From the NCBI GenBank assembly GCA_964472625.1, contig CAYYLM010000006.1, forward strand, positions 1,315-65,314: a stretch of DNA of 64,000 bases. The letters run 5' to 3'. Of this stretch, positions 802 through 40,844 are shown in pieces (positions within the stretch are counted from its first letter, which is position 1; each line of letters begins with the position of its first letter). This DNA is from an uncultured Dehalococcoidales bacterium (GTDB lineage Bacteria; Chloroflexota; Dehalococcoidia; Dehalococcoidales; UBA5760). The position numbers and the translations under genes were made by a program. The notes under the pieces were generated by a model. It saw only the letters and a list, made by a program, of their open reading frames with translations, was not told where the DNA came from and ran no database searches.

Positions 802-1030
802 TCACTGACTTTATCCTGTCCCCGAAGTGGCTACACCAGCTAGGTGAAGGATCACGCTGCGAGACCTTCCGATCTTGAGTGACTTGCGCGTAATCTTAGA
901 TGACATCTTGCCCTACCATGATGACGACTCCAAACTCATCGGGCGACTACTAGATAAATAGCTTTCAAGGAGAGTTAGACTCTATACCTAATCCACTCCC
1001 AGCGACCACCCCACTTATACCTTCAACGCC

Positions 1031-1333
1031 TCAGCTCTTATAAAGGCTCTCGATAATCCTTATCAAAGACTTCTTAATCTCGGGCTGGAGCACCTTATCA
1101 GCCTTTATCGCTGGGATTATTCCTATCACAACCCCTTCCTTACCAGCCACAAGATAATCAATACTCACACCTAGTTCCTCAGCAGCTTTCACAAGGAATC
1201 CCATCGACGGCACGCGCTTACCCTGCTCAATCGCTGAAATATGCTGAGGAGTCATGCTTAACGCATTGGCCAATTCCTGCTGTGTTATCTTTAGAATTTT
1301 GCGCCTTTTTCTGATTCGTTCACCTAAGCTCAT
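1031..1333 (-). CDS. XRE-family helix-turn-helix transcriptional regulator
   Basis: MSLGERIRKRRKILKITQQELANALSMTPQHISAIEQGKRVPS is a classic HTH_3 sequence. The ORF-track start at 1453 is probably an upstream extension; the ATG at 1333 fits the family N-terminus. Confidence 0.8.
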   Translation of the reverse strand: MSLGERIRKRRKILKITQQELANALSMTPQHISAIEQGKRVPSMGFLVKAAEELGVSIDYLVAGKEGVVIGIIPAIKADKVLQPEIKKSLIRIIESLYKS

Positions 1334-1475
1334 TCTGCTATCCAATCCTCTCAGGTCTTTAGTGAAAAGACTAGCAACTGAATGATTAGGAGAGCAAATA
1401 TACATCTCATAGTTTACTTTTACGACTATTTGCGTTTTAATAATATGCGACAACCTTGAAAATCGGAGGAGAGCA

Positions 1476-1970
1476 ATGAATCAAAGAATCATTTTAGCCA
1501 CTATCCTTAGCCTATGTATTTCGGGACTGCTACTACTCAACGGGTGTTTCCTGTCCCCATCACAACCAAGTTACAGCCCACCCGCAACAACACGGGTACC
1601 AGAATCAACACCAGAACCTACTCCTACCTATCGGCATTGGGAATGGCAACCATCCCCAGGTCACATTTTAGAAGGCGGATCATGGGCCTACTTCCCCGCA
1701 GGTGGGGCATACGTAGAAGCGGGACATACCTTGACGCTACATTGGTCGTCAGACAGCCCTTTGGATGGCTTCATCCTTACCGCAAATCAATTCGACAACA
1801 TGGACAAGCATCTTGGAGTGGTTTCGGCATATCTCGCTAAGGGTTCCGGCACTAACAAGACCATAGTCGCACATGTCCAGAACAGCGACAAGTATTATGC
1901 CGTTGTGCGTAATTTGTCTGTTCTCGCACCTTCAGTGAAACTTTACGAGGCGACGCTCACCGAGGAGTAA
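1476..1970 (+). CDS. Hypothetical lipoprotein
   Basis: Signal peptide with lipobox LLLLNG-C, followed by a Pro/Ser/Thr-rich linker. Confidence 0.6.
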   Translation: MNQRIILATILSLCISGLLLLNGCFLSPSQPSYSPPATTRVPESTPEPTPTYRHWEWQPSPGHILEGGSWAYFPAGGAYVEAGHTLTLHWSSDSPLDGFILTANQFDNMDKHLGVVSAYLAKGSGTNKTIVAHVQNSDKYYAVVRNLSVLAPSVKLYEATLTEE

Positions 1971-1991
1971 TCCACCGAGGGAAATATATAC

Positions 1992-2013
1992 TTCCCCCCC
2001 CCTCCTCCCCCTT
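1992..2013. repeat. Pyrimidine tract C9-T-CC-T-C5 (C9 homopolymer at 1994-2002)
   Basis: Read directly: cttccccccccctcctccccctt. Confidence 0.9.
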
Positions 2014-2267
2014 GACCATGCGGTTTCCAGCCCTAGAAAACCATCATACGCTTTCTGGGATATATTGCTGATGTCCCTAGTGCCATGAACTTCCTTGTAA
2101 TGGGCTAACAATCTAAGAAGATCCTAGAGATAGCCATCCATTGATCGAACGCCTTTATTCATGAGCATATAAATCATATGCGCATTGGTGCAGCACGTGA
2201 GGCGGTTTTGATACAATGCTCTAAACTCTGGATATTTGAATTTAGACTTAGAAAGAGGCTGAAAATG

Positions 2268-2299
2268 AGAGAAACTATTTAGTTTCTCTTATTTTTGTG
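2268..2299 (+). terminator. Rho-independent terminator-like hairpin
   Basis: 9-bp stem agagaaact/agtttctct (2268-2276 / 2281-2289), 4-nt loop attt, tail tatttttgtg. Confidence 0.5.
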
Positions 2300-2360
2300 C
2301 GTGGTCAAAAACCTTTGCTTTTTGTTAGCGCGATGTTAGCATGAAAATAAGGAAAATTGA

Positions 2361-2747
2361 ATGTTTGAGCATTTGCCGGAAGTAACACAAGATAACCTCA
2401 ATGTGCTGACTGATAAGGAAATAAGCTGTTTTGCCAGTTTACTTAAGAGATGCATTGAGGAGACCGATACTCCTGACAGAGCAATAGACTGCATGTGCCA
2501 GGAGATTAGTAATTCAAATCCGTATCTAGTTAACGCAGTGAGGGCTGCTGCCTATTCAGTGGCGAGTGAGCTAGAGGGGGATGTCCCAGGAGGTTGTGAA
2601 TGGAGAGCTGGCCTAGCTACTGTCCCCGGCGTGTTGGCTATCTTACGTTTAATAGACCGGGCCCTGGAGGCCAGGGTTATCATGTCAAAACTGGGGTTCT
2701 ATAGTCCAAATAGTTCAAGTGGCAGCGATAACCCACAGATGCAATAG
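2361..2747 (+). CDS. Hypothetical protein (element cargo)
   Basis: 128-aa ORF directly upstream of the recombinase gene and overlapping it. No recognisable motif. Confidence 0.45.
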   Translation: MFEHLPEVTQDNLNVLTDKEISCFASLLKRCIEETDTPDRAIDCMCQEISNSNPYLVNAVRAAAYSVASELEGDVPGGCEWRAGLATVPGVLAILRLIDRALEARVIMSKLGFYSPNSSSGSDNPQMQ

Positions 2748-4338
2748 TCAATGTTTGGTGTCTTTGTACAGGAGTAGGGTAACGGTGGAAAGGGCTTTGG
2801 TAGTATTGCGGGAAAGTCTTGATATCCTGGCTGAGGGATACGGGTTTGATATACAGCTAGATGAGGTAAAGCGGTTCTTTCAAGAGCACGATTTAGTTGC
2901 TGACAGGATAGTAAAGCTAATTGAAAATTCTACAACCTGGGATAGAGACGAATTCGAGTCTCTGGTATTCGATGCCATAGATCGACGGTTCGAGGTTCCT
3001 TGGTTGGTATTTCCGAGGGTGGACAGATTTGCGAGGAAAGCGGATGCCGCTGCGTATTATCTTGGTTTATTGAGGAAGGCTGGCCTGAAATTGGGTTTTG
3101 CCAGGGAAAACCTTGTGGTAACTAACGAGACGGGCTCCATGGAATTTCTAATGCTTAGCTTTCAAACGGCCAAGGCTGATGAAGATGCAAAGACTATCAA
3201 GGCTAATACAATGGGTGGCCGACTTAAGCGGGCTAAAGAGCGTGGCAGACTTCCCAACGGTGGGCACAGGTGGTGTTTTGACTACGACAAGGCTACGGGG
3301 AAAGCTGTCATTAACTCGGAAAAAGCCAATCATGTCAGAAACTGGGCTAGATGGCTTATAGAAGAGGGGGTAAGTCTAGGGGAGTGCTGCCGACGTATGG
3401 AAGCCCTAGGTGTCCCAGCACCTAAAGGGGGCTTAAGATGGCGCCCTGGCACTCTTACGCGAATATTGAAGGATAGAGCTCTTATTGGCAAGTTCTACGC
3501 TTACAAAGAGAAGATGGTTGGGGAGGAAGGGCGCGTAAAGAAACGTCGGGAATGTCAGAAGGAACCGCTTCTAGTTTATGAAGATGATAACACCGTTCTG
3601 GAATCTGTAATATTTGAAGACGTTCAAAGACGGTTACGAAAGAATATTGAATTATCCCAGCGTAATGTAAGATTCGATTACACACCTACTCGCGGTTTCA
3701 TCTTCTGTGGGACCTGCGGACGTAGGCTAACGGGGGTGGCATTTCGTGGCGTACCTTATTTCCGATGTCCAGTATGCAGGAAGCCGAGCATTAAGGCAGA
3801 GGCTATTTGGGAAGCAGTGAGCGGGGAGATAAAACACATTCTCCTTGATCCGGAACTCTTCTACGAGGCATTGAGCAAATACTTGAATACCGGAATGTCA
3901 GCTGCCCAATTGGAACGTGAAATTACTCAATTAGAAACGCAATTGGCTAATCTTGATGAAGTTGATACAAAGATACTGAGGTTGTATCTGATAACCAACT
4001 ACCCGGAGAATAAACTAAGAATAGAGCACGAGCGGATAGAAAAGCACAAGGTAGTGTTATCTGATAAAGTTAGACATTTGAAGGCAGAATTAGCTGACCT
4101 CAGACGGGTAAGGCTAACCAGAGAAGTCTTGGCTGAACACTCGCGCTGGTTTCAGTCAGAGGTTGCTCACTTTACTGAACAGGCGTGGCGTGGGCTCCTT
4201 GCTCAATGGGAAGTGAAAGTCATCATTGATGGGCAGAAACAAGCTTCGCTCCAAATGCGTTCACCATCAACTAATCTAGATACTTCAATACCGTTAAACA
4301 GTGAGTTATTGTGTCACAACGATGGTAAACGATGGTAA
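2719..4338 (+). CDS. Large serine recombinase (resolvase / recombinase / zinc-ribbon architecture) with an atypical N-terminus
   Basis: VDRFARK matches the resolvase 'lDRlsR' motif. Recombinase-domain signature GRLPNGGHRWCFDYD. Zinc ribbon CGTCGRRL...FRCPVCRK, then a C-terminal coiled coil. No in-frame ATG near the 5' end (candidate GTG/TTG starts at 2719-2785). Confidence 0.8.
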   Translation: MAAITHRCNSQCLVSLYRSRVTVERALVVLRESLDILAEGYGFDIQLDEVKRFFQEHDLVADRIVKLIENSTTWDRDEFESLVFDAIDRRFEVPWLVFPRVDRFARKADAAAYYLGLLRKAGLKLGFARENLVVTNETGSMEFLMLSFQTAKADEDAKTIKANTMGGRLKRAKERGRLPNGGHRWCFDYDKATGKAVINSEKANHVRNWARWLIEEGVSLGECCRRMEALGVPAPKGGLRWRPGTLTRILKDRALIGKFYAYKEKMVGEEGRVKKRRECQKEPLLVYEDDNTVLESVIFEDVQRRLRKNIELSQRNVRFDYTPTRGFIFCGTCGRRLTGVAFRGVPYFRCPVCRKPSIKAEAIWEAVSGEIKHILLDPELFYEALSKYLNTGMSAAQLEREITQLETQLANLDEVDTKILRLYLITNYPENKLRIEHERIEKHKVVLSDKVRHLKAELADLRRVRLTREVLAEHSRWFQSEVAHFTEQAWRGLLAQWEVKVIIDGQKQASLQMRSPSTNLDTSIPLNSELLCHNDGKRW

Positions 4339-4419
4339 CCCCGGCGAGATATCGACCTCAACTTCGACAACCGCCCCTTCCAGTCCGACTATGGCGCAGC
4401 TCATTACCTTGGCTAGCAT
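4306..4419 (-). pseudogene. comM: 5' fragment of comM/yifB (Mg-chelatase-like ATPase) truncated by the element
   Basis: The minus strand reads MLAKVMSCAIVGLEGAVVEVEVDISPGLPSFTIV, then VTQ and a stop. It is preceded by SD GGAGA. Too short to appear in the ORF track. Confidence 0.75.
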
Positions 4420-4478
4420 ATTTCTCCATAGGTAATACCACAGGTGTTAGTTATCGGTCAACCGTACCTGTGGTGATA

Positions 4479-5234
4479 CTATTTGGCTGTCCAGCCGCCA
4501 TCAACCGGCAGGATGGCGCCCGTAATCATGCTAGCTTCATCACTGGCCAGGAAGCAAACCGCGGTGGCAACGTCGTCCAGTGTGGCTAGGCGGTGATAGA
4601 GAATGTTATCCATTACGTAGCTTCTGAATTCCGGGTCCTCCAGCATACCCTGGCTCAAAGGGGTCAGAACGAAGGTGGGCGCCACAACGTTAATGCGGAT
4701 ATTGTATGGTGCCCAGTCAACAGCTTCGGCTTTACTTAGCAATGCCACAGCTCCCTTACTGGCACAGTAATTGGCACGTTTCCAGCCCCCCACCAGGCTC
4801 ATCTGGGAACCGATATTAATAATCGAGCCCCCCTTACGGGGTATCATTGACTGGATAGCAACCGCCTGATTACAGAAGAAGAGCCCCTTGGCATTTACGT
4901 CGTTTAAGGCATGCCAATCTTCCTCAGTGACTTCGTGAGCCAGCTGGGGGATGTTGATTCCGGCGCTGCAGACCAGGATGTCGATCTCGCCCAGTTCCTC
5001 CCTTATGCGGCTGACCAGGGGGGCAAGAGCGGGAATCACGGTCACATCTTGAAGGTAACCTTTGGCTACCCCCTTTGCCTGCACCCTTTTCGTTGCCCCG
5101 GGCAGGGTTTCCGCATTCTTATCAACCAGAGCTACCTTGGCACCACTTCCTGCCAAAAGCTCGGCACAGGCAAGGCCGATGCCACTGGCGGCTCCAGTCA
5201 CCATGGCAACCTTGTTGTCAAGTCTAATGTCCAC
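4479..5234 (-). CDS. Short-chain dehydrogenase/reductase (SDR) family oxidoreductase
   Basis: TGAASGIGLA (TGxxxGxG) and YCASK (YxxxK). Confidence 0.85.
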   Translation of the reverse strand: MDIRLDNKVAMVTGAASGIGLACAELLAGSGAKVALVDKNAETLPGATKRVQAKGVAKGYLQDVTVIPALAPLVSRIREELGEIDILVCSAGINIPQLAHEVTEEDWHALNDVNAKGLFFCNQAVAIQSMIPRKGGSIINIGSQMSLVGGWKRANYCASKGAVALLSKAEAVDWAPYNIRINVVAPTFVLTPLSQGMLEDPEFRSYVMDNILYHRLATLDDVATAVCFLASDEASMITGAILPVDGGWTAK

Positions 5235-5282
5235 GGGCTCTCTTTGCCTCCTTTTCTAGTCATGCTTGCTTAAGGGTGAGAC

Positions 5283-7016
5283 CTAATCCCAGCCTTTAAG
5301 CCGGTAATAATCAGACAACATCCTATCGAAATCCGATTTCAGAAGCACCTTACCACTGTCCTCGAGCCTTTCTTCAAAAAACCTTTTTGGTAGAGTATCG
5401 TCGGCGGTCGTCATGCCCTCGCGCAGATTGAATTCCCTAGCCTTATTGGTAATGCCTAGCGCCAGTTTCTGCAGACTGGGCTTATCCAGCTTCATTCCCG
5501 TGGTTGCCTCTATCACCAGCGATAATCTCTGCCAGAGGTACATGTCTCGGAAAAAGCGGCACAGGATCAGGGCATCAAAGAGGGTGTGCCGGTCCTCGAA
5601 GTCGATAAGCATCTCCGCTTTACCCTCGATTTGGTCTGGGTCTATCATTCCGGAGAGCTCTGCCTTATAGAAGGTAGCTCTTAGGTGGTCGGCGCCTCTG
5701 TCTCCGGTAGCGTAGGTTAGCCCCATACCCTTGAGAACCCTGGGTTCATAACCTGGTGGCTCCAGCCCTTTGACGTGAATGGCCAGGTCCTCTAGTCCCC
5801 ACTCTTTAGCAGCGTGTCGTACCCCTTCCGCCAGGATAGCCCCGATGCCCTCTCTTCGGGTGATCTTATGTAGTAGCTGGCTAATACCGTCAACGTCGCC
5901 ATATTCAATTTTCTCGCCGATTGGCTTTCGGTGGGATGCCTCTATGGCAAAGGCAGCGACATTACCGGCGGTTATCGTGTCCAGACCGAGCCGGTCACAG
6001 ATATCATTAAGGTAGGCGACCTCCCTAATATCGCTAATCAGGCACAGCCCGCCGAAAACGGCGATGGTCTCATATTCGGGTCCCTCGACTCTCAGTCCCT
6101 TATGTCGCCCCGTGGTGACCTCAAATAGTTTGGCGCACGCCATACAACATTTAGGGCAGGCCCGGGACTTGACATCGCACTGCTCGCGTGCTTTTTGCAT
6201 GGTCAGGTTTTGCCATCTATCGAAGGTCCCCGAGGTCCAGTACTTGGTGGGAAAGGCACCGGCTTTGTTGGTTGCGGTCACCACCTGAACTGTCCCCTCG
6301 GAGTAAAACCTCTGGGCGCCGGGGTCTACTTTACAGGCTTCTCTCATTTCTTCCCAGAGTTTATCTAGCATCTCGGGGTGGGCTATCTGCCTCTTTACAT
6401 CTCCGTAAAAGGCTATGCCCTTGACCTTCTTTGCCCCCAGCACTGCTCCCGCCCCGGCTCTACCTGCCGACCGCCAGTGGTCGTTCTCAATCAGGGCAAA
6501 CTTGACCAGGTTCTCCCCGGCCGGCCCGATAACGCCGATACCGGCATCCCGTCTCCCTAATTCCTCGCGGATGGCATCTTCAGTCTCATAGGTGTCTTTG
6601 CCCCAGAGGTGTGAGGCATCGTGAAATACTACCTTTTGGTGGGTAATCTCGAGGTAAACCGGCTTCTGGGAAGCCCCTGTGATAATGATGGCGTCATAAC
6701 CGGTCCGGCTTAGCGGTTCAGCCACCCTGCCCCCGGAGTAGGACTCGCAGTATACCCCGGTCAGGGGTGACTTGGTAAATACTCCGTAGCGGCACGAGCC
6801 GTAGGTTCTGGTATCAGTGGCTGGCCCGGTGGCCAAAATGACTGCGTTTTCTGGTGATAGGGGTTTAACCCCGGCTTTGGTATTTTTGAGCAGGAGATGG
6901 GTAGCCAGCCCCTTTCCTCCCAGGAACTCCCGGTAGATGGCATCATCTACGGATTCCTCGGCAAATGACCTCTGGCTGAGGTCAATATATAGTAGTTTGT
7001 TATGGAAGCCCTTCAC
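5283..7016 (-). CDS. Aldehyde:ferredoxin oxidoreductase (AOR) family tungsto/molybdopterin enzyme
   Basis: N-terminus MKGFHNKLLYIDLS...FLGGKGLA and overall AOR-family pattern. 577 aa. Its start lies 1 nt after the pgk stop. Confidence 0.8.
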   Translation of the reverse strand: MKGFHNKLLYIDLSQRSFAEESVDDAIYREFLGGKGLATHLLLKNTKAGVKPLSPENAVILATGPATDTRTYGSCRYGVFTKSPLTGVYCESYSGGRVAEPLSRTGYDAIIITGASQKPVYLEITHQKVVFHDASHLWGKDTYETEDAIREELGRRDAGIGVIGPAGENLVKFALIENDHWRSAGRAGAGAVLGAKKVKGIAFYGDVKRQIAHPEMLDKLWEEMREACKVDPGAQRFYSEGTVQVVTATNKAGAFPTKYWTSGTFDRWQNLTMQKAREQCDVKSRACPKCCMACAKLFEVTTGRHKGLRVEGPEYETIAVFGGLCLISDIREVAYLNDICDRLGLDTITAGNVAAFAIEASHRKPIGEKIEYGDVDGISQLLHKITRREGIGAILAEGVRHAAKEWGLEDLAIHVKGLEPPGYEPRVLKGMGLTYATGDRGADHLRATFYKAELSGMIDPDQIEGKAEMLIDFEDRHTLFDALILCRFFRDMYLWQRLSLVIEATTGMKLDKPSLQKLALGITNKAREFNLREGMTTADDTLPKRFFEERLEDSGKVLLKSDFDRMLSDYYRLKGWD

Positions 7017-34824: not shown

Positions 34825-34853
34825 TTGTCAGTGGGGTATTGATAAAATATAAT
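34825..34853 (+). promoter_or_regulatory. Near-consensus sigma-70 promoter with no adjacent CDS
   Basis: TTGTCA (34825-34830), exactly 17 nt, TATAAT (34848-34853). Confidence 0.5.
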
Positions 34854-35458: not shown

Positions 35459-35990
35459 TTTTTGGGGTAAGAACTGGCGAACTATCGTCTTTTTCCTTGT
35501 TGCCCCGGCAATAGCAATTGGTGACCAGGCGAGCAAGGCTTGGATACGGTCCAATCTAGCGGTCGGGCAGTCATTACCTGAAGCGGGATTTCTTCGCTTG
35601 ACCCATGTCCAAAATACCGGGGCTGCCTTCGGCATATTTCAGGATCATACCTTTTCGCTGACGATAGTCAGCTTTGTTGGTGCTGCCGTTATTCTGTTCT
35701 ATACCTTCTATGTTCGCCGCCGTTTTACCTTCCTGAACAATGGGGTAAGCATGGCGGCACTGGGTGTGGTTCTCGGCGGTACGGTGGGTAACCTGATTGA
35801 CCGGCTAAGTTTGGGCTATGTTACCGACTTTATCCTGGTTGGCACCTTCCCGGCGTTTAATGTGGCTGACTCGTCAATAACCTCGGGTACTTCGGTATTC
35901 GCTGGCTTCCTGATCTATCTCCTCGTCAGGGAGAAGCAAGAAGCAAGGGGAGAACCGTCGCCTAATGACCGCGGTTCTCCCTCAGCTTAA
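35442..35990 (+). CDS. lspA: Lipoprotein signal peptidase II
   Basis: DQASK, NTGAAFG, GNLIDR, FNVADS motifs. Confidence 0.9.
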   Translation: MRRVSSFWGKNWRTIVFFLVAPAIAIGDQASKAWIRSNLAVGQSLPEAGFLRLTHVQNTGAAFGIFQDHTFSLTIVSFVGAAVILFYTFYVRRRFTFLNNGVSMAALGVVLGGTVGNLIDRLSLGYVTDFILVGTFPAFNVADSSITSGTSVFAGFLIYLLVREKQEARGEPSPNDRGSPSA

Positions 35991-36912
35991 GGAGACGGGT
36001 TTGATACCGGCTCTCAAGATAGTTAGCTTGGTGACTAGTGAGCCTGGGGTGCGTCTGGACAAATATGTGGTTGAGAAGTGTCCCGAGCTTTCCCGAACCC
36101 AGGCTCAAAAGCTGGTTAGTGACGGCCTAGTCATGGTCAACGATAAGGTGGCTAAAGCCGGCTTGAAACTCAGCGCTGGCGACAGGGTGAGGATTACACT
36201 ACCTTCCTCCACTAATGACTCTCCATCACCAGAGGCGATGCCGCTAAGCATTGTCTATGAGGATAATGACCTTTTAGTCGTTGATAAGCCAGCCGGGCTG
36301 GCAGTTCACCCGGCACCGGGTCATCCCAGCCATACCCTGATTAATGCTGTCCTGTCCCATGTTCCCCACCTGCCTGAGGCTGATGACTTTCGGCGGCCCG
36401 GGGTGGTGCACCGCCTAGATAAGGATGCCTCCGGGCTGATGGTGGTGGCTAAGAATAGGGAGGCTCAGCTAAATTTAATTAGTCAGTTCAAAGCCCGTTC
36501 CATAGTCAAGGCCTATCTGGTGCTGGCTAAAGGGCGTCTCACTCCTGATGATGGGGTGATTGAGGCACCCATCGGGCGTGACCCCCGCCATCGGAAGCGC
36601 ATGGCGGTGGTGGCTGAGGGTGAAGGCCGGGAGGCAAGAACCAACTATCATGTGGTTAAACACATCGGGGACTGTACTCTGCTTGAGGTAAGACCCGAGA
36701 CCGGGCGCACCCACCAGATTCGGGTGCACCTCTCGGCGATTGGCTACCCCGTCTTTGGCGATCGGGTCTATGGGGCTAGGTCAGAGAAGCTGCCTCGCCT
36801 CTTCCTCCACGCCTCGCGCCTGGGCTTAAAGCTGCCTTCAAGCGGCGAGTATAAAGAGTTCACCTCCAATCTGCCGCCGGACCTTGAGCGGGTGCTTGAG
36901 GACATCGGGTAG
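35965..36912 (+). CDS. rluD: RluA-family 23S rRNA pseudouridine synthase (RluD-like)
   Basis: S4 domain (RLDKYV...SRTQAQKLV), catalytic HRLDKDASG, THQIRVH. Confidence 0.9.
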   Translation: MTAVLPQLKETGLIPALKIVSLVTSEPGVRLDKYVVEKCPELSRTQAQKLVSDGLVMVNDKVAKAGLKLSAGDRVRITLPSSTNDSPSPEAMPLSIVYEDNDLLVVDKPAGLAVHPAPGHPSHTLINAVLSHVPHLPEADDFRRPGVVHRLDKDASGLMVVAKNREAQLNLISQFKARSIVKAYLVLAKGRLTPDDGVIEAPIGRDPRHRKRMAVVAEGEGREARTNYHVVKHIGDCTLLEVRPETGRTHQIRVHLSAIGYPVFGDRVYGARSEKLPRLFLHASRLGLKLPSSGEYKEFTSNLPPDLERVLEDIG

Positions 36913-36961
36913 AATCTACGCGATAGTGGGTGGTAGAATGAGGGAAAGATAGAGGCAAGAA

Positions 36962-37600
36962 GTGGATACTCAAAGGGTCTTAGAAAGGCTAGAGAGCCTG
37001 ATTAGTATAGGTGAGAAAGTTCTGTATACGCCTGGCTCAGGTAGCGACTCTGTAGATGTTGGCCTTTTTCAGCAATGGCGAACAAGTTCACTGGCTTTCT
37101 TGAATACTACATTTGGCTCTGGTAGCATCCACTATCGCGAATTTGAGGAACGTTGCAAACAGAATTGGTGTTACGAAGCTGAGTGTGGACTTGCAATTCT
37201 TCGTGCAGCAAAAGAAGATATTGAGGGTGGTTACCTTCAAAAAGTCGAGACTCTCGTTTCTGCCAGTGTCTTTACCGACTTCCTAGACATGGCAGAGCAT
37301 CTTCTGACTAATGGCTACAAAGACCCAGCAGCCTCACTTGTTGGAGCAGTTCTCGAAGATGGCTTGCGGCGAATTTGTGCTAAAAACAACCTCGCTGTGA
37401 AGTCTGATGACAACATAAGTTCTCTTAATCAAAAACTTGCTGATAAGAGTGTATATAATCGCCTTCAGCAGAGGGAAATAGAGGTTTGGAATAAGTTACG
37501 TGACTATGCTGACCACGGTCATTTTGATGAATATAAATCCGATGACGTGAAAAACATGTTGGCGGGAGTTAGCAAGTTTCTATCCGAATATTTAGTGTAG
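36962..37600 (+). CDS. HEPN-domain protein (R-x4-H), standalone
   Basis: The C-terminal helical domain ...AASLVGAVLEDGLRRIC...WNKLRDYADHG... carries RDYADH (R180-x4-H185; nt 37499-37516). Sampled lines are low GC (e.g. 21/60 at 37381-37440). GTG start. Confidence 0.55.
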   Translation: MDTQRVLERLESLISIGEKVLYTPGSGSDSVDVGLFQQWRTSSLAFLNTTFGSGSIHYREFEERCKQNWCYEAECGLAILRAAKEDIEGGYLQKVETLVSASVFTDFLDMAEHLLTNGYKDPAASLVGAVLEDGLRRICAKNNLAVKSDDNISSLNQKLADKSVYNRLQQREIEVWNKLRDYADHGHFDEYKSDDVKNMLAGVSKFLSEYLV

Positions 37601-37611
37601 AAGGGCATCGT

Positions 37612-39081
37612 ATGACCCAACCAGTTAGAGTGCGTTTTGCCCCCAGCCCCACCGGCTACCCCCACGTGGGCAACATGCGGACGGCTATGTTTAACTGGCT
37701 TCTGGCCCGGCACACGGGGGGGAAGTTTATCCTCCGCATTGAGGATACCGATGTTGCCCGCAAAGTTAAAGGAGCGCTTGAGGCTATCCTCGACGGTCTT
37801 AAGTGGCTGGGGCTTGACTGGGATGAGGGCCCGGAGGTGGGGGGGCCGTACGGCCCCTACTTCCAGTCGCAGCGCCTGCCTTTATACCGGGAGGCGGCGG
37901 AGCGGCTGATTTCTCAAGGGGATGCCTACTACTGCTATTGCTCGGCGGAGCGTCTTGAGGAGATGCGTGCCGAGCAGACAAGGCGCAAGTGGGCGCCGGG
38001 ATACGACCGCCGCTGCCGCGATTTAGCTCCGGAGGAAAGAGCGCAGCGGGAGAAAGAGGGCGTCACGCCGGTAGTCCGCTTTAAGGTGCCGCTTGAGGGG
38101 CAGACCCGGTTTAACGACCTCATCTGGGGGGAGGTGGTCTTTGAGAACGCCACCATTGATGATTTTGTGCTCCTTAAGTCTGACGGCTACCCCACCTATC
38201 ATCTGGCTAACGTGGTTGACGATAGCACCATGAAGGTTAGCCACGTCATCCGGGCTGAGGAGTGGATCTCCAGTACCCCGCGCCACATGCTCCTCTATCG
38301 AGCTCTGGAGCTTGAGCCGCCGCAGTTTGTCCATCACCCAATGATACTCGGCCCTGATCGGTCTAAGCTCAGCAAGCGGCATGGCGCGGTCTCTATCCTT
38401 GAGTACCGTAAGCGGGGCTACCTGCCGGAGACAATGTTCAATTTCCTCTCCCTAATCGGCTGGTCTCTGGATGACAAGACCGAGATCATGTCACGGGAGG
38501 AGCTCGTAGATAACTTCTCCCTGGAGCGAATCAGCAAGACCGGGGCCATTTTCAACCGGGATAAGCTCGAGTGGATGAATGGTGTTTACCTGCGGCAGTT
38601 AAGTCACGAAGATTTATTGCTAAAAATCATGCCGTTTTTGGAGAGCGGATTGCCGAAGGAGATAAAGCGGCCTATATCGAAAGAATACGTGAGTCTTTTT
38701 TTACCACTGATTCGGGAGCGGATAAACACACTGGCGGAGGCTGCCAAATATGCTGACTTCTTCTTTCTCGATAAACTGGAATATGACGCATCATTGCTGG
38801 TGTGTAAGAAGATGACGGTGGCAACTACACTCAGGGCACTGAAAGCCGCTCAAGAAAAAATATCCTCACTGGAAAGCTTTAACCATGATTTGCTAGAAGG
38901 TACGCTTCGGTCTCTAGCTGAGGAACTAAGGATCAAGGCGGGGCAACTTTTCAACCCACTTCGGGTAGCTACTACCGGCCGCACTGCTGCACCTCCCCTC
39001 TTTGAGACGATGGTGGTACTGGGTAAAGAAAGATGTTTGAAGAGGATTAGGGTTGCGGTGGGAAAGCTAGAAAACAACTGA
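37612..39081 (+). CDS. gltX: Glutamyl-tRNA synthetase (compositionally mosaic: 3' third is low GC)
   Basis: FAPSPTGYPHVGNMRTA (HIGH), LSKRHG (KMSKS). GC falls from ~63% to ~40-45% at about 38580-38600. Confidence 0.95.
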   Translation: MTQPVRVRFAPSPTGYPHVGNMRTAMFNWLLARHTGGKFILRIEDTDVARKVKGALEAILDGLKWLGLDWDEGPEVGGPYGPYFQSQRLPLYREAAERLISQGDAYYCYCSAERLEEMRAEQTRRKWAPGYDRRCRDLAPEERAQREKEGVTPVVRFKVPLEGQTRFNDLIWGEVVFENATIDDFVLLKSDGYPTYHLANVVDDSTMKVSHVIRAEEWISSTPRHMLLYRALELEPPQFVHHPMILGPDRSKLSKRHGAVSILEYRKRGYLPETMFNFLSLIGWSLDDKTEIMSREELVDNFSLERISKTGAIFNRDKLEWMNGVYLRQLSHEDLLLKIMPFLESGLPKEIKRPISKEYVSLFLPLIRERINTLAEAAKYADFFFLDKLEYDASLLVCKKMTVATTLRALKAAQEKISSLESFNHDLLEGTLRSLAEELRIKAGQLFNPLRVATTGRTAAPPLFETMVVLGKERCLKRIRVAVGKLENN

Positions 39082-39143: not shown

Positions 39144-40844
39144 ATGAATATGACCACAAACAATGTTGAACTACCCCGCGATTTCATCCGGGATGTTATT
39201 AATAATGACCTCCGAACGAATAAATACGGCGGTAGGGTTCATACCAGATTTCCTCCAGAGCCGAACGGCTATCTACACATCGGACACGCCAAGTCCATCT
39301 GCCTCAATTTCGGTATCGCCGTTGAATTCAGCGGCTTCTGCAATCTGCGGTTCGATGATACCAATCCCATCAAGGAAGAACAGGAATATATTAACTCAAT
39401 CATCGAAGATGTTCGCTGGCTGGGATTTGACTGGGGGGATCGGCTATACTACGCCTCGGACTACTTTGAGCAGATGTACGAATATGCCGTGCAGTTGATT
39501 GAAGCTGGTAATGCTTACGTTGATGAAATGAGTGTGGAGGAGATCAGGGAATACCGTGGCACCTTAACTCAGCTGGGCAGACATAGTCCGTACCGGGACC
39601 GTTCAATCGAGGAAAATCTCGACTTGTTCAGTCGCATGCGGGCCGGCGAATTCCCGGAAGGTTCACATGTGCTCCGAGCGAAAATTGACATGGCTTCTCG
39701 GAATTTGAATATGCGTGATCCGGTCATGTATCGCATTCTGTACTCAGAGCACCCCCGTACGGGCGATAAGTGGTGCATCTATCCGATGTACGACTGGGCC
39801 CATGGCCTTGAGGATTCCATCGAAAGAATTACCCATTCCATCTGTACATTGGAATTTGAAGATCATCGTCCGCTATATGACTGGTTCTTGGACAAGTTGG
39901 GCGTCTATCATCCCCAGCAGATCGAGTTTGCCCGACTCAATCTCACCTACACCGTGATGAGCAAGCGCATGCTTCTGGAACTGGTACGGGAAGGGCATGT
40001 GAGTGGGTGGGATGATCCACGGATGCCGACGATATCGGGTTTACGCAGACGTGGCTACACACCAGAGTCCATCCGTAACTTTTGTCGGCGCATTGGAGTG
40101 GCGAAAACCGGCAGTACGATCGATATTGCCTTACTTGAGCATAGCCTGCGCGAGGATTTGAACAAGAAGGCTCAACGTGTTATGGGAATATTGCGCCCAC
40201 TGCGCGTGGTTATTGATAACTATCCAGAAGGCCAAGTGGAAGAATTAGATGCGGTGAATAATCCCGAGGACCCCGGCGCAGGAAAGCGAAAGGTACCCTT
40301 TTCGCGTGTGCTATATATTGAACGAGAGGATTTTCGCGAAGACCCACCGAAAAAGTTCTTCCGTCTGGCGCCAGGTCGTGAGGTACGACTGAGATACGCT
40401 TACTTTATCACTTGTGTGGATGTGTTGAAGGAAGAACAAAGCGGAGAGATAGTCGAGCTTCACTGCACTTATGATCCAGCCACGCGGGGTGGTGATTCCC
40501 CGGATGGACGGAAGGTCAAAGCAACGTTGCACTGGGTTTCGGCTGAGCACGCAGTCGAGGCTGAAGTACGCTTGTACGATCATTTATTCAGTAAGGAAGA
40601 CCCAACTGATGTGGAGGATGGGGCTGATTTCAAGGCTTATTTGAACCCCAATTCCTTGGAGATACTAACCTCGTGCCGTGTTGAACCTAGTCTTGTCGGT
40701 GCAACACCCGGGAGTCGGTACCAATTCGAGAGGCAGGGCTATTTCTGCGTCGATCCCGATTCATCTGCTGGGAAAATCGTGTTCAATCAGACGGTGTCGT
40801 TACGGGATACCTGGGCTAAAATAGAGAAGCAAGAAAATAAATGA
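39144..40844 (+). CDS. glnS: Glutaminyl-tRNA synthetase
   Basis: [17 protein letters not shown] (HIGH), TVMSKR (KMSKS), C-terminal beta-barrel anticodon-binding region. Low GC relative to the core. Confidence 0.9.

Follow-up and report, generated by a model that had tools for sequence, protein, structure and literature searches.

A predicted stand-alone two-domain HEPN ribonuclease carried as exchangeable cargo between rluD and gltX in Dehalococcoidales

Bacterial immune effectors include a growing class of stand-alone HEPN ribonucleases (RNases), and to our knowledge the activation mechanism is known for few of them, RAZR being one example. The present work concerns a gene encoding a 212-residue protein with a C-terminal HEPN domain, which lies between rluD and gltX in a stretch of 64,000 nucleotides (nt) from an uncultured Dehalococcoidales bacterium (contig CAYYLM010000006.1, positions 1,315 to 65,314); this whole stretch is termed the window. 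Dehalococcoidia genomes are small and streamlined, and we know of almost no experimentally characterised defence repertoire in them. The closest described system, RAZR (PD-T7-4), is a single-gene anti-phage RNase composed of a zinc finger and a DUF4145/HEPN domain; its overexpression is non-toxic, and phage ring proteins activate it (PMC13017515). PrrC is the precedent for HEPN RNases that act as a back-up of restriction-modification (R-M) systems (PMC3710099). The hallmarks of catalytic HEPN domains are an R-x4-6-H motif whose arginine is followed by a polar residue (N/D/H) and an E-x3-[K/R] motif, and non-catalytic HEPN families typically lose R-x4-6-H (Anantharaman et al. 2013, PMC3710099).

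The protein encoded in the window is a solid member of the HEPN superfamily (Pfam clan CL0291). Its gene is accessory, exchangeable cargo in a variable slot between rluD and gltX and not a lineage-wide housekeeping gene, because the slot contents are patchy, the distances between HEPN and flanking genes are decoupled, the G+C content at third codon positions (GC3) is unadjusted to the host, and a foreign rluD fragment accompanies one copy. With moderate confidence, we regard it as a mobile stand-alone two-domain HEPN RNase, carried as cargo of this slot, which would be kept latent in cis and would arrest growth upon release by a trigger. The gene and the parts of its product (residues, aa) are as follows.

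36962..37600, plus strand: complete HEPN gene encoding the two-domain protein of 212 aa; GTG start, TAG stop
36962..37237, plus strand: N-terminal domain, aa 1-92, four-helix bundle, candidate sensor/regulatory module (AlphaFold2, AF2; Foldseek)
37238..37267, plus strand: flexible interdomain linker, aa 93-102 (predicted local distance difference test, pLDDT, <50)
37268..37597, plus strand: C-terminal HEPN domain, aa 103-212 (Pfam HEPN at aa 106-208; Foldseek; relatives match PF05168, PF18735 and PF13643)
37355..37369, plus strand: E-x3-R motif E132-D-G-L-R136, the second HEPN hallmark (E132 invariant; PMC3710099)
37499..37516, plus strand: R-x4-H motif RDYADH, R180 (CGT) and H185 (CAC), predicted catalytic (both residues invariant)

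PF05168 (HEPN) is the only Pfam match of the window protein, in which aa 106-208 align to positions 10-112 of the 117-position profile with E = 7e-4. A Pfam scan of 115 diverse relatives gave significant matches within the HEPN clan only: 29 relatives match PF05168 (best 5e-9), 28 match RiboL-PSP-HEPN (PF18735), 18 match DUF4145 (PF13643) weakly (best 5e-5), and two each match the Swt1-like and MAE_28990-like HEPN families, with no recurrent Pfam family from outside HEPN. The matches of the family to PF05168, PF18735 and PF13643 range from 1e-4 to 5e-9. Since the members scatter over several HEPN-clan models, no single existing Pfam family captures them. The family is unnamed and without a Pfam family of its own, its database labels being “hypothetical” or “HEPN domain-containing” only. 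The superfamily call is not new, since at least one member (P0096, TES84888.1) carries the NCBI label “HEPN domain-containing protein”.

Structural comparison points to the same fold. A Foldseek search against the PDB placed 2hsb, 1o3u, 2q00 and 1ufb at ranks 1-4 (probability 1.00, target TM-score 0.63-0.74), followed by numerous HepT toxin chains, and the probabilities of the HEPN/HepT matches listed are 0.9-1.0. PDB sequence searches, with the single sequence as well as with a profile, gave no significant match.

The conservation of the predicted active site was assessed in relatives that were retrieved with no motif pattern. The HMMER search with the family profile covered 1.84 billion representatives (E ≤ 1e-3) and gave 4,511 clusters at 50% identity, 630 of them with E ≤ 1e-30; nearly all members found in this way are 210-230 aa long, the same two-domain size, and 514 homologs are equal in length to the window protein. 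An earlier motif count from genome-scan loci was set aside as partly circular, the motif having served as a search pattern. From the HMMER matches, 134 relatives with identities of at most 50% among themselves and of 32-67% (median 39%) to the window protein were compared. E132, R180 and H185 are 100% invariant in this set, the position of R136 is occupied by R or K in 97%, and position 181, directly after R180, is N in 84% and D in 15%, which gives the family pattern R-[N/D]-x-A-x-H.

The N-terminal domain is of a different character. The full-length AF2 model has a mean pLDDT of 86 and a predicted template modelling score (pTM) of 0.54, with helical domains at about aa 3-88 and 102-210. Modelled alone, aa 1-98 reach a pLDDT of 93 and a pTM of 0.84, and form a bundle of four helices in which a short beta element follows helix 1. 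The low full-length pTM against that of the domain alone, together with the floppy linker, indicates two tethered modules in the models. Homology of the N-terminal domain to a known domain was considered and rejected, as Foldseek with the dedicated model returned generic four-helix bundles only (HPt proteins, FliS and the QseE sensor domain, E ≥ 0.46); Pfam gave no match to this domain. PADLOC reported a weak match to the candidate system PDC-S35, in which aa 1-76 align to profile positions 1-69 of 264 with E = 0.007, that is, over the N-terminal part only and not over the full length. The domain is less conserved than the C-terminal one, the mean top-residue frequency per alignment column being 0.39 versus 0.55. 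It lacks a Cys-rich motif, and none of the Cys positions is conserved in the broad family.

The initial annotation had proposed a HEPN domain carrying RDYADH at R180/H185, following an N-terminal region that resembles nothing recognised. All three points are borne out: the Pfam HEPN profile lies near threshold for the window protein and is clear in its relatives, the AF2 model and Foldseek give the HEPN fold for the C-terminal domain with top structures that are all HEPN or HepT, the motif sits at 37499-37516 with both residues invariant, and the N-terminal part has neither a Pfam match nor specific Foldseek relatives.

Comparison with RAZR reveals a shared layout of one polypeptide with no partner, in which a small non-catalytic N-terminal domain and a linker precede a C-terminal HEPN domain with an R...H pair. 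By analogy, latency until a trigger arrives would be expected here too. The weak DUF4145 matches among the relatives are a further similarity. In contrast to the Cys4 zinc ribbon of RAZR, the N-terminal domain here is a four-helix bundle, and the spacing R-x4-H differs from R146...H154. The PD-T7-4 model of PADLOC is unmatched, and the window protein does not reach the DUF4145 profile (nor that of RiboL-PSP-HEPN) at E ≤ 1 in the Pfam search.

PrrC and RloC likewise carry HEPN with R-x4-6-H, and homologs of the present gene adjoin or are embedded in R-M sets of types I and III; an R-M pair is also an alternative cargo in the slot of the window. Unlike PrrC and RloC, the protein has no N-terminal ABC-ATPase domain (no ATPase match was obtained), and R-M genes are not adjacent to it in the window. 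The best structural matches are HepT and minimal HEPN proteins (2hsb, 1o3u, 5yep, 6m6u and 7ae8), with which it shares the four-helix core and the motif position; the sequence identity is 8-16%, and the 90-aa N-terminal domain is an addition relative to HepT. This is in contrast to HepT-MntA (DUF86/MNT, type VII) also in gene arrangement, as there is no adjacent MNT gene in the window or at 67 other loci.

The slot in which the gene resides is bounded by the following features.

35965..36912, plus strand: rluD, 23S rRNA pseudouridine synthase family, left flank (Pfam S4 and PseudoU_synth_2; synteny)
36952..36955, plus strand: ribosome-binding site GAGG, 6 nt ahead of the GTG start (read from sequence)
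37612..39081, plus strand: gltX, glutamyl-tRNA synthetase, right flank (Pfam tRNA-synt_1c and Anticodon_2)

The order dksA-lspA-rluD-HEPN-gltX was initially seen in 3 of 4 long contigs and then at about 14 Dehalococcoidales genome loci, with identities of 63-75% for HEPN, 63-83% for rluD and 67-76% for gltX. Vertical, housekeeping-like inheritance was nevertheless rejected by gltX-anchored sampling, by scattered presence on the tree and by decoupled distances. The sample comprised 80 metagenome loci with gltX 67-88% identical, of which 57 had enough upstream sequence. HEPN is next to gltX in 8 of the 57; the slot is empty in 7, with rluD directly beside gltX (gaps of 61-354 nt); other cargo fills it in 25, where rluD is 0.5-3.6 kb upstream of gltX with genes in between; and rluD is beyond reach in the remaining 17. 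Among these alternative contents are a ThaI restriction endonuclease (PF15514) with an N6/N4 DNA methylase in 5-8 loci, an open reading frame (ORF) of 75 aa in 8 loci (preceding an RDD-family protein in 3), a Clp-protease-like protein, DJ-1/PfpI, an S-adenosylmethionine (SAM) methyltransferase and unknown proteins of 242-244 aa. Loci with such other cargo between rluD and gltX include L110, L112, L131, L138, L147 and L156. Whether the alternative cargo ORFs of about 200 aa are divergent HEPN homologs was checked by a local hmmsearch with the family hidden Markov model, which found none.

The 17 HEPN-positive loci are scattered over the gltX tree among empty and otherwise-filled loci; the nearest relative of L119, a HEPN locus, is L147 with the ThaI R-M pair. 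Distances of HEPN and gltX correlate weakly (Mantel r = 0.21, p = 0.03; Spearman 0.05) in contrast to those of rluD and gltX (Mantel r = 0.64, p = 2e-4), and gltX and HEPN identities diverge in individual pairs, being 92% and 62% for L006/L083, 90% and 57% for L004/L119, and 74% and 85% for L019/L083. HEPN alleles are swapped or replaced independently of the genes on either side. We also note that the slot HEPN genes comprise at least two deep allele groups, in which the motif region (aa 176-190) reads either WNKLRDYADHGHF or WNDIRNNADHGNF; the comparison was made between L003, L013 and L007 on one side and L010, L125, L019 and L083 on the other, and neither form follows host relatedness.

Base composition and one composite locus add to this picture. 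HEPN GC3 is 0.32-0.44 in every slot locus regardless of host GC3 (0.51-0.82 in gltX). The HEPN ORF in the window has a G+C (GC) content of 0.434 versus a window mean of 0.530, and only 0.8% of the stretches of this length within the 64 kb are equally AT-rich. Amino-acid composition as the cause of the low GC was found to be only partly true: the deficit is mainly in GC3, and with the codon usage of its neighbours the window protein would be expected to be encoded at 50% GC, against 43% observed. In L083, the slot holds three cassettes: rluD is followed by a copy of the slot element described below, a ThaI-like restriction endonuclease with its methylase, a second element, a Clp-like protein, a 169-nt copy of the rluD 3' end, a third element, HEPN and gltX. 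The 169-nt direct repeat (632-800 and 3149-3317) is 85% identical to the resident rluD, and this foreign fragment marks an import from a different genome in which donor flank came along.

In the window, the genes dksA/traR, lspA, rluD, HEPN, gltX and glnS follow each other on the same strand. The gap between rluD and the HEPN gene is 49 nt, the TAG stop of the HEPN gene extends to 37600, and the ATG of gltX is at 37612, after an 11-nt gap (AAGGGCATCGT). With gaps of this size there is no room for a partner gene, and no MNT-like or small partner ORF is present on either side. The start position of homologs is equivalent to the GTG start of the window gene. A scan for consensus sites gave neither promoter-like nor terminator-like matches near the HEPN gene; the sole strong promoter-like site (11/12) is at 34825-34853, upstream of dksA. 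HEPN and gltX are probably expressed together, given the 11-nt spacing with no terminator-like site in between. Rfam gave no credible match around the HEPN gene.

With respect to the locus, the initial annotation fared equally well. It had described a 212-aa ORF with a GTG start that ends 11 nt before gltX, as the coordinates verify; an AT-rich gene, which ranks among the lowest 0.8% of the window for GC and for which the counts of 21/60 (37381-37440) and 23/60 (37441-37500) are both reproduced exactly; a lone gene with no MNT/antitoxin-like partner, a state that extends to 67 non-syntenic loci; and a horizontally acquired gene, in agreement with a slot that is filled, empty or otherwise filled in sister genomes, a HEPN phylogeny decoupled from the flanks, and GC3 that is not ameliorated.

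Two further stretches of the window are mentioned here. The glnS gene (glutaminyl-tRNA synthetase, 39144-40844) stands directly after gltX, as it does in L006 (88% identity). The other syntenic loci have flavodoxin-like or CoA-transferase genes after gltX instead, so that the side downstream of gltX is variable too. The only other stretch as AT-rich as the HEPN gene is at 845-4338, which contains a CI-like helix-turn-helix (HTH) repressor (1031-1453, minus strand), a large serine recombinase (2719-4338, plus strand) and, in the middle, two ORFs of unknown nature; the stretch is probably a mobile element that has integrated here, or what is left of one.

The slot is further marked by a short element immediately after rluD.

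36910..36943, plus strand: slot element of about 35 nt, window form TAGAAT-N15-TGGTAGAAT-GAGG, 22 nt upstream of the GTG

The consensus is CTAGAAT-N14-TGGTAGAAT-GGGG. In the window, the first TAG of the element is the stop codon of rluD, and TGGTAGAAT is situated at 36931-36939. The element is found in essentially all rluD/gltX loci, whether the slot is occupied or not: it precedes the HEPN start by about 22-31 nt at filled sites and the gltX ATG by 17-52 nt at empty sites, and in slots with other contents it is usually upstream of the cargo. Slots with multiple cassettes (L083, L133, L144, L110 and L126) have one copy ahead of each cassette, at 784-815, 2503-2534 and about 3296-3327 in L083. 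The possibility that the element travels with the HEPN cassette was rejected: it is not beside HEPN homologs outside the slot, and therefore belongs to the slot. TGGTAGAAT as a general promoter consensus was likewise rejected, as the 64-kb window contains a single copy. The element resembles an extended -10 promoter (TGnTAGAAT), and a simple promoter reading is uncertain because some empty-site elements end only 12 nt before the gltX ATG. It may be such a promoter (a local promoter of gltX), a cassette-boundary or recombination site, or a leader.

Outside the slot, the family was followed in a wider scan of one genome per species, which gave 76 loci. Matches with at least 61% identity are from Dehalococcoidales/Dehalococcoidia, and those with 30-56% are from Patescibacteria (Woesebacteria and others), Gamma-, Beta- and Deltaproteobacteria, Acidobacteriota, Nitrospirota, Actinomycetota, Gemmatimonadota and others. 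The 67 non-syntenic loci have no conserved neighbour or partner family, and no nucleotidyltransferase family occurs among their +/-1 neighbours. In Woesebacteria, the order is an HTH_17/MerR gene, HEPN, a type III methylase and ResIII, and a gene for a serine recombinase lies close by. Elsewhere, HEPN is flanked by HsdM upstream and HsdS downstream, or has OLD/AbiEii-like AAA ATPase, SIR2, AIPR, MvaI/BcnI, Eco57I, PLD, Cap15, PIN or integrase genes as neighbours.

Some upstream and translation-related neighbours deserve mention. The HTH_17/MerR genes (excisionase-like, 60-63 aa) are directly before HEPN at L023:4801-4989, L025:4805-4984, L027:4805-4984 and L046:999-1187, and an unannotated ORF of 60-100 aa is directly upstream on the same strand at many other loci; the window is without a counterpart. 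These small upstream genes could encode a regulator or an antidote in those lineages. L005, a non-syntenic Dehalococcoidia locus, contains a complete 23S rRNA gene (2685-5665, minus strand) divergent to the HEPN homolog (5956-6609), which is followed by GYD and SpoU-methylase genes; the upstream sequence of L009 is similar. The HEPN homolog is right after seryl-tRNA synthetase in L043, and probably in L042, and right before YchF in L029. Of 60 loci, 12 have tRNA genes no more than 5 kb away from the homolog; in L044 (tRNA-His, 742-817) and L063 (tRNA-Arg, 4761-4835) the two are directly adjacent, and tRNA-Ser genes recur at five loci (L031, L039, L043, L052 and L070). The tRNA adjacency fits genomic-island-type insertion sites, and the recurring translation-related neighbours may be insertion anchors or may reflect a functional link.

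The proposed mechanism follows the logic of the single-gene HEPN protein RAZR and of PrrC within type I R-M loci, and the protein is a plausible candidate for an anti-phage or stress nuclease. By analogy with HEPN RNases (PMC3710099, PMC13017515), two protomers would dimerise, and their paired R-x4-H motifs would form one metal-independent RNase site, the predicted cleavage of which would leave 2',3'-cyclic phosphate ends on RNA. A free HEPN RNase would be harmful, and since an antitoxin or other partner gene is lacking, its activity is probably restrained in cis. The part of sensor or regulator would fall to the faster-evolving N-terminal bundle, which would release the activity in response to a trigger such as a protein of a phage or mobile element, or a stress signal. 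Growth would then cease through cleavage of tRNA, rRNA or mRNA, in the manner of abortive infection.

Several points weigh against this reading. The PF05168 score of the window protein is 20.1 bits, 2 below the cutoff of 22, and the Foldseek E-values are weak (0.08-0.6), though the matches are consistent. RNase activity, toxicity and an anti-phage or stress role are predictions from sequence for the whole family, and the sensor role of the N-terminal domain is suggested by analogy alone. PDC-S35, to which this domain is weakly similar, is matched by just 4 of the 115 relatives (best E = 1.6e-3), and PADLOC gives no real match to the family. The residual vertical signal in the slot is weak but significant (Mantel p = 0.03). 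A search of IMG/VR contigs with two peptide patterns found no viral relatives; a viral origin was rejected also in view of BFVD fold matches that are weak and confined to the HEPN domain and of a weak PHROG match. As to whether homologs sit in defence islands, the neighbourhoods are mixed: R-M, defence and mobile genes recur, but many surroundings consist of ordinary housekeeping genes, including several with a role in translation (rluD/gltX, serS, YchF and 23S rRNA), and the defence enrichment is an impression from raw neighbour lists.

The translation-related surroundings lend themselves to another explanation, in which the protein would be an accessory enzyme of RNA processing or quality control, or a conditional modulator of tRNA or rRNA, for example in starvation, rather than an immune effector. 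The dksA-lspA-rluD-HEPN-gltX-glnS cluster is co-oriented with no internal promoter-like or terminator-like site, homologs adjoin a 23S rRNA gene with a SpoU methylase, seryl-tRNA synthetase, YchF and tRNA genes, and the HEPN families Las1 and Ire1/KEN are RNA-processing enzymes (PMC3710099). This explanation appears unlikely, however, in the face of the patchy presence in close relatives with the same flanking genes, the decoupled phylogeny, the foreign-looking codon usage and the R-M pair that occupies the same slot in relatives; moreover, insertion hotspots are typically anchored by conserved housekeeping, tRNA and rRNA genes, and such neighbours are thereby explained with no need of a functional link.

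We likewise see little probability in the gene being the toxin of an addiction module that stabilises its DNA segment by means of an unrecognised antidote, be it the N-terminal domain in cis, a small RNA or a micro-ORF. The gaps of the window leave no partner room and Rfam found no RNA; no upstream family extends beyond 4 of 63 loci and MNT or nucleotidyltransferase neighbours are lacking, although HEPN is the toxin fold of HepT/MNT systems and comes top in the fold search, and although many non-syntenic homologs have the upstream ORF of 60-100 aa, or HTH_17/MerR in the four Woesebacteria loci. The gene does behave as selfish, exchangeable cargo, as such a module would, yet a chromosomal slot between essential genes needs no stabilisation. 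The least likely explanation is a non-catalytic HEPN adaptor or regulator that binds RNA, nucleotide or protein like MtlR or the nucleotidyltransferase-attached HEPN domains, which we consider very improbable because the invariance of E132, R180 and H185 down to 32% identity is an active-site pattern under purifying selection, even though some HEPN families have lost catalysis and serve as binding modules (PMC3710099) and both domains here are simple helical bundles typical of adaptors.

The reading as a latent, slot-borne HEPN RNase can be taken a step further, though only tentatively. The family might represent an unrecognised single-protein immune system, in which the fast-evolving N-terminal domain would directly sense a phage or plasmid product and unleash the tethered HEPN RNase. 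Its Dehalococcoidales members would enter a dedicated slot as one of several kinds of cassette, where the element of about 35 nt would possibly serve as a recombination site at the cassette boundary and as an expression site, without an adjacent integrase.

The family is large, phylogenetically broad and missing from defence-system catalogues (PADLOC), and it has a clean layout of a putative sensor bundle, a linker and a HEPN domain with three invariant predicted catalytic residues. The accessory-gene hotspot between rluD and gltX, with its repeated element, is newly noticed in Dehalococcoidia. If the proposed function holds, the family would contribute a new type of sensor to single-protein HEPN immunity, and the slot would provide a marker locus for the flux of defence genes in uncultured Chloroflexota.

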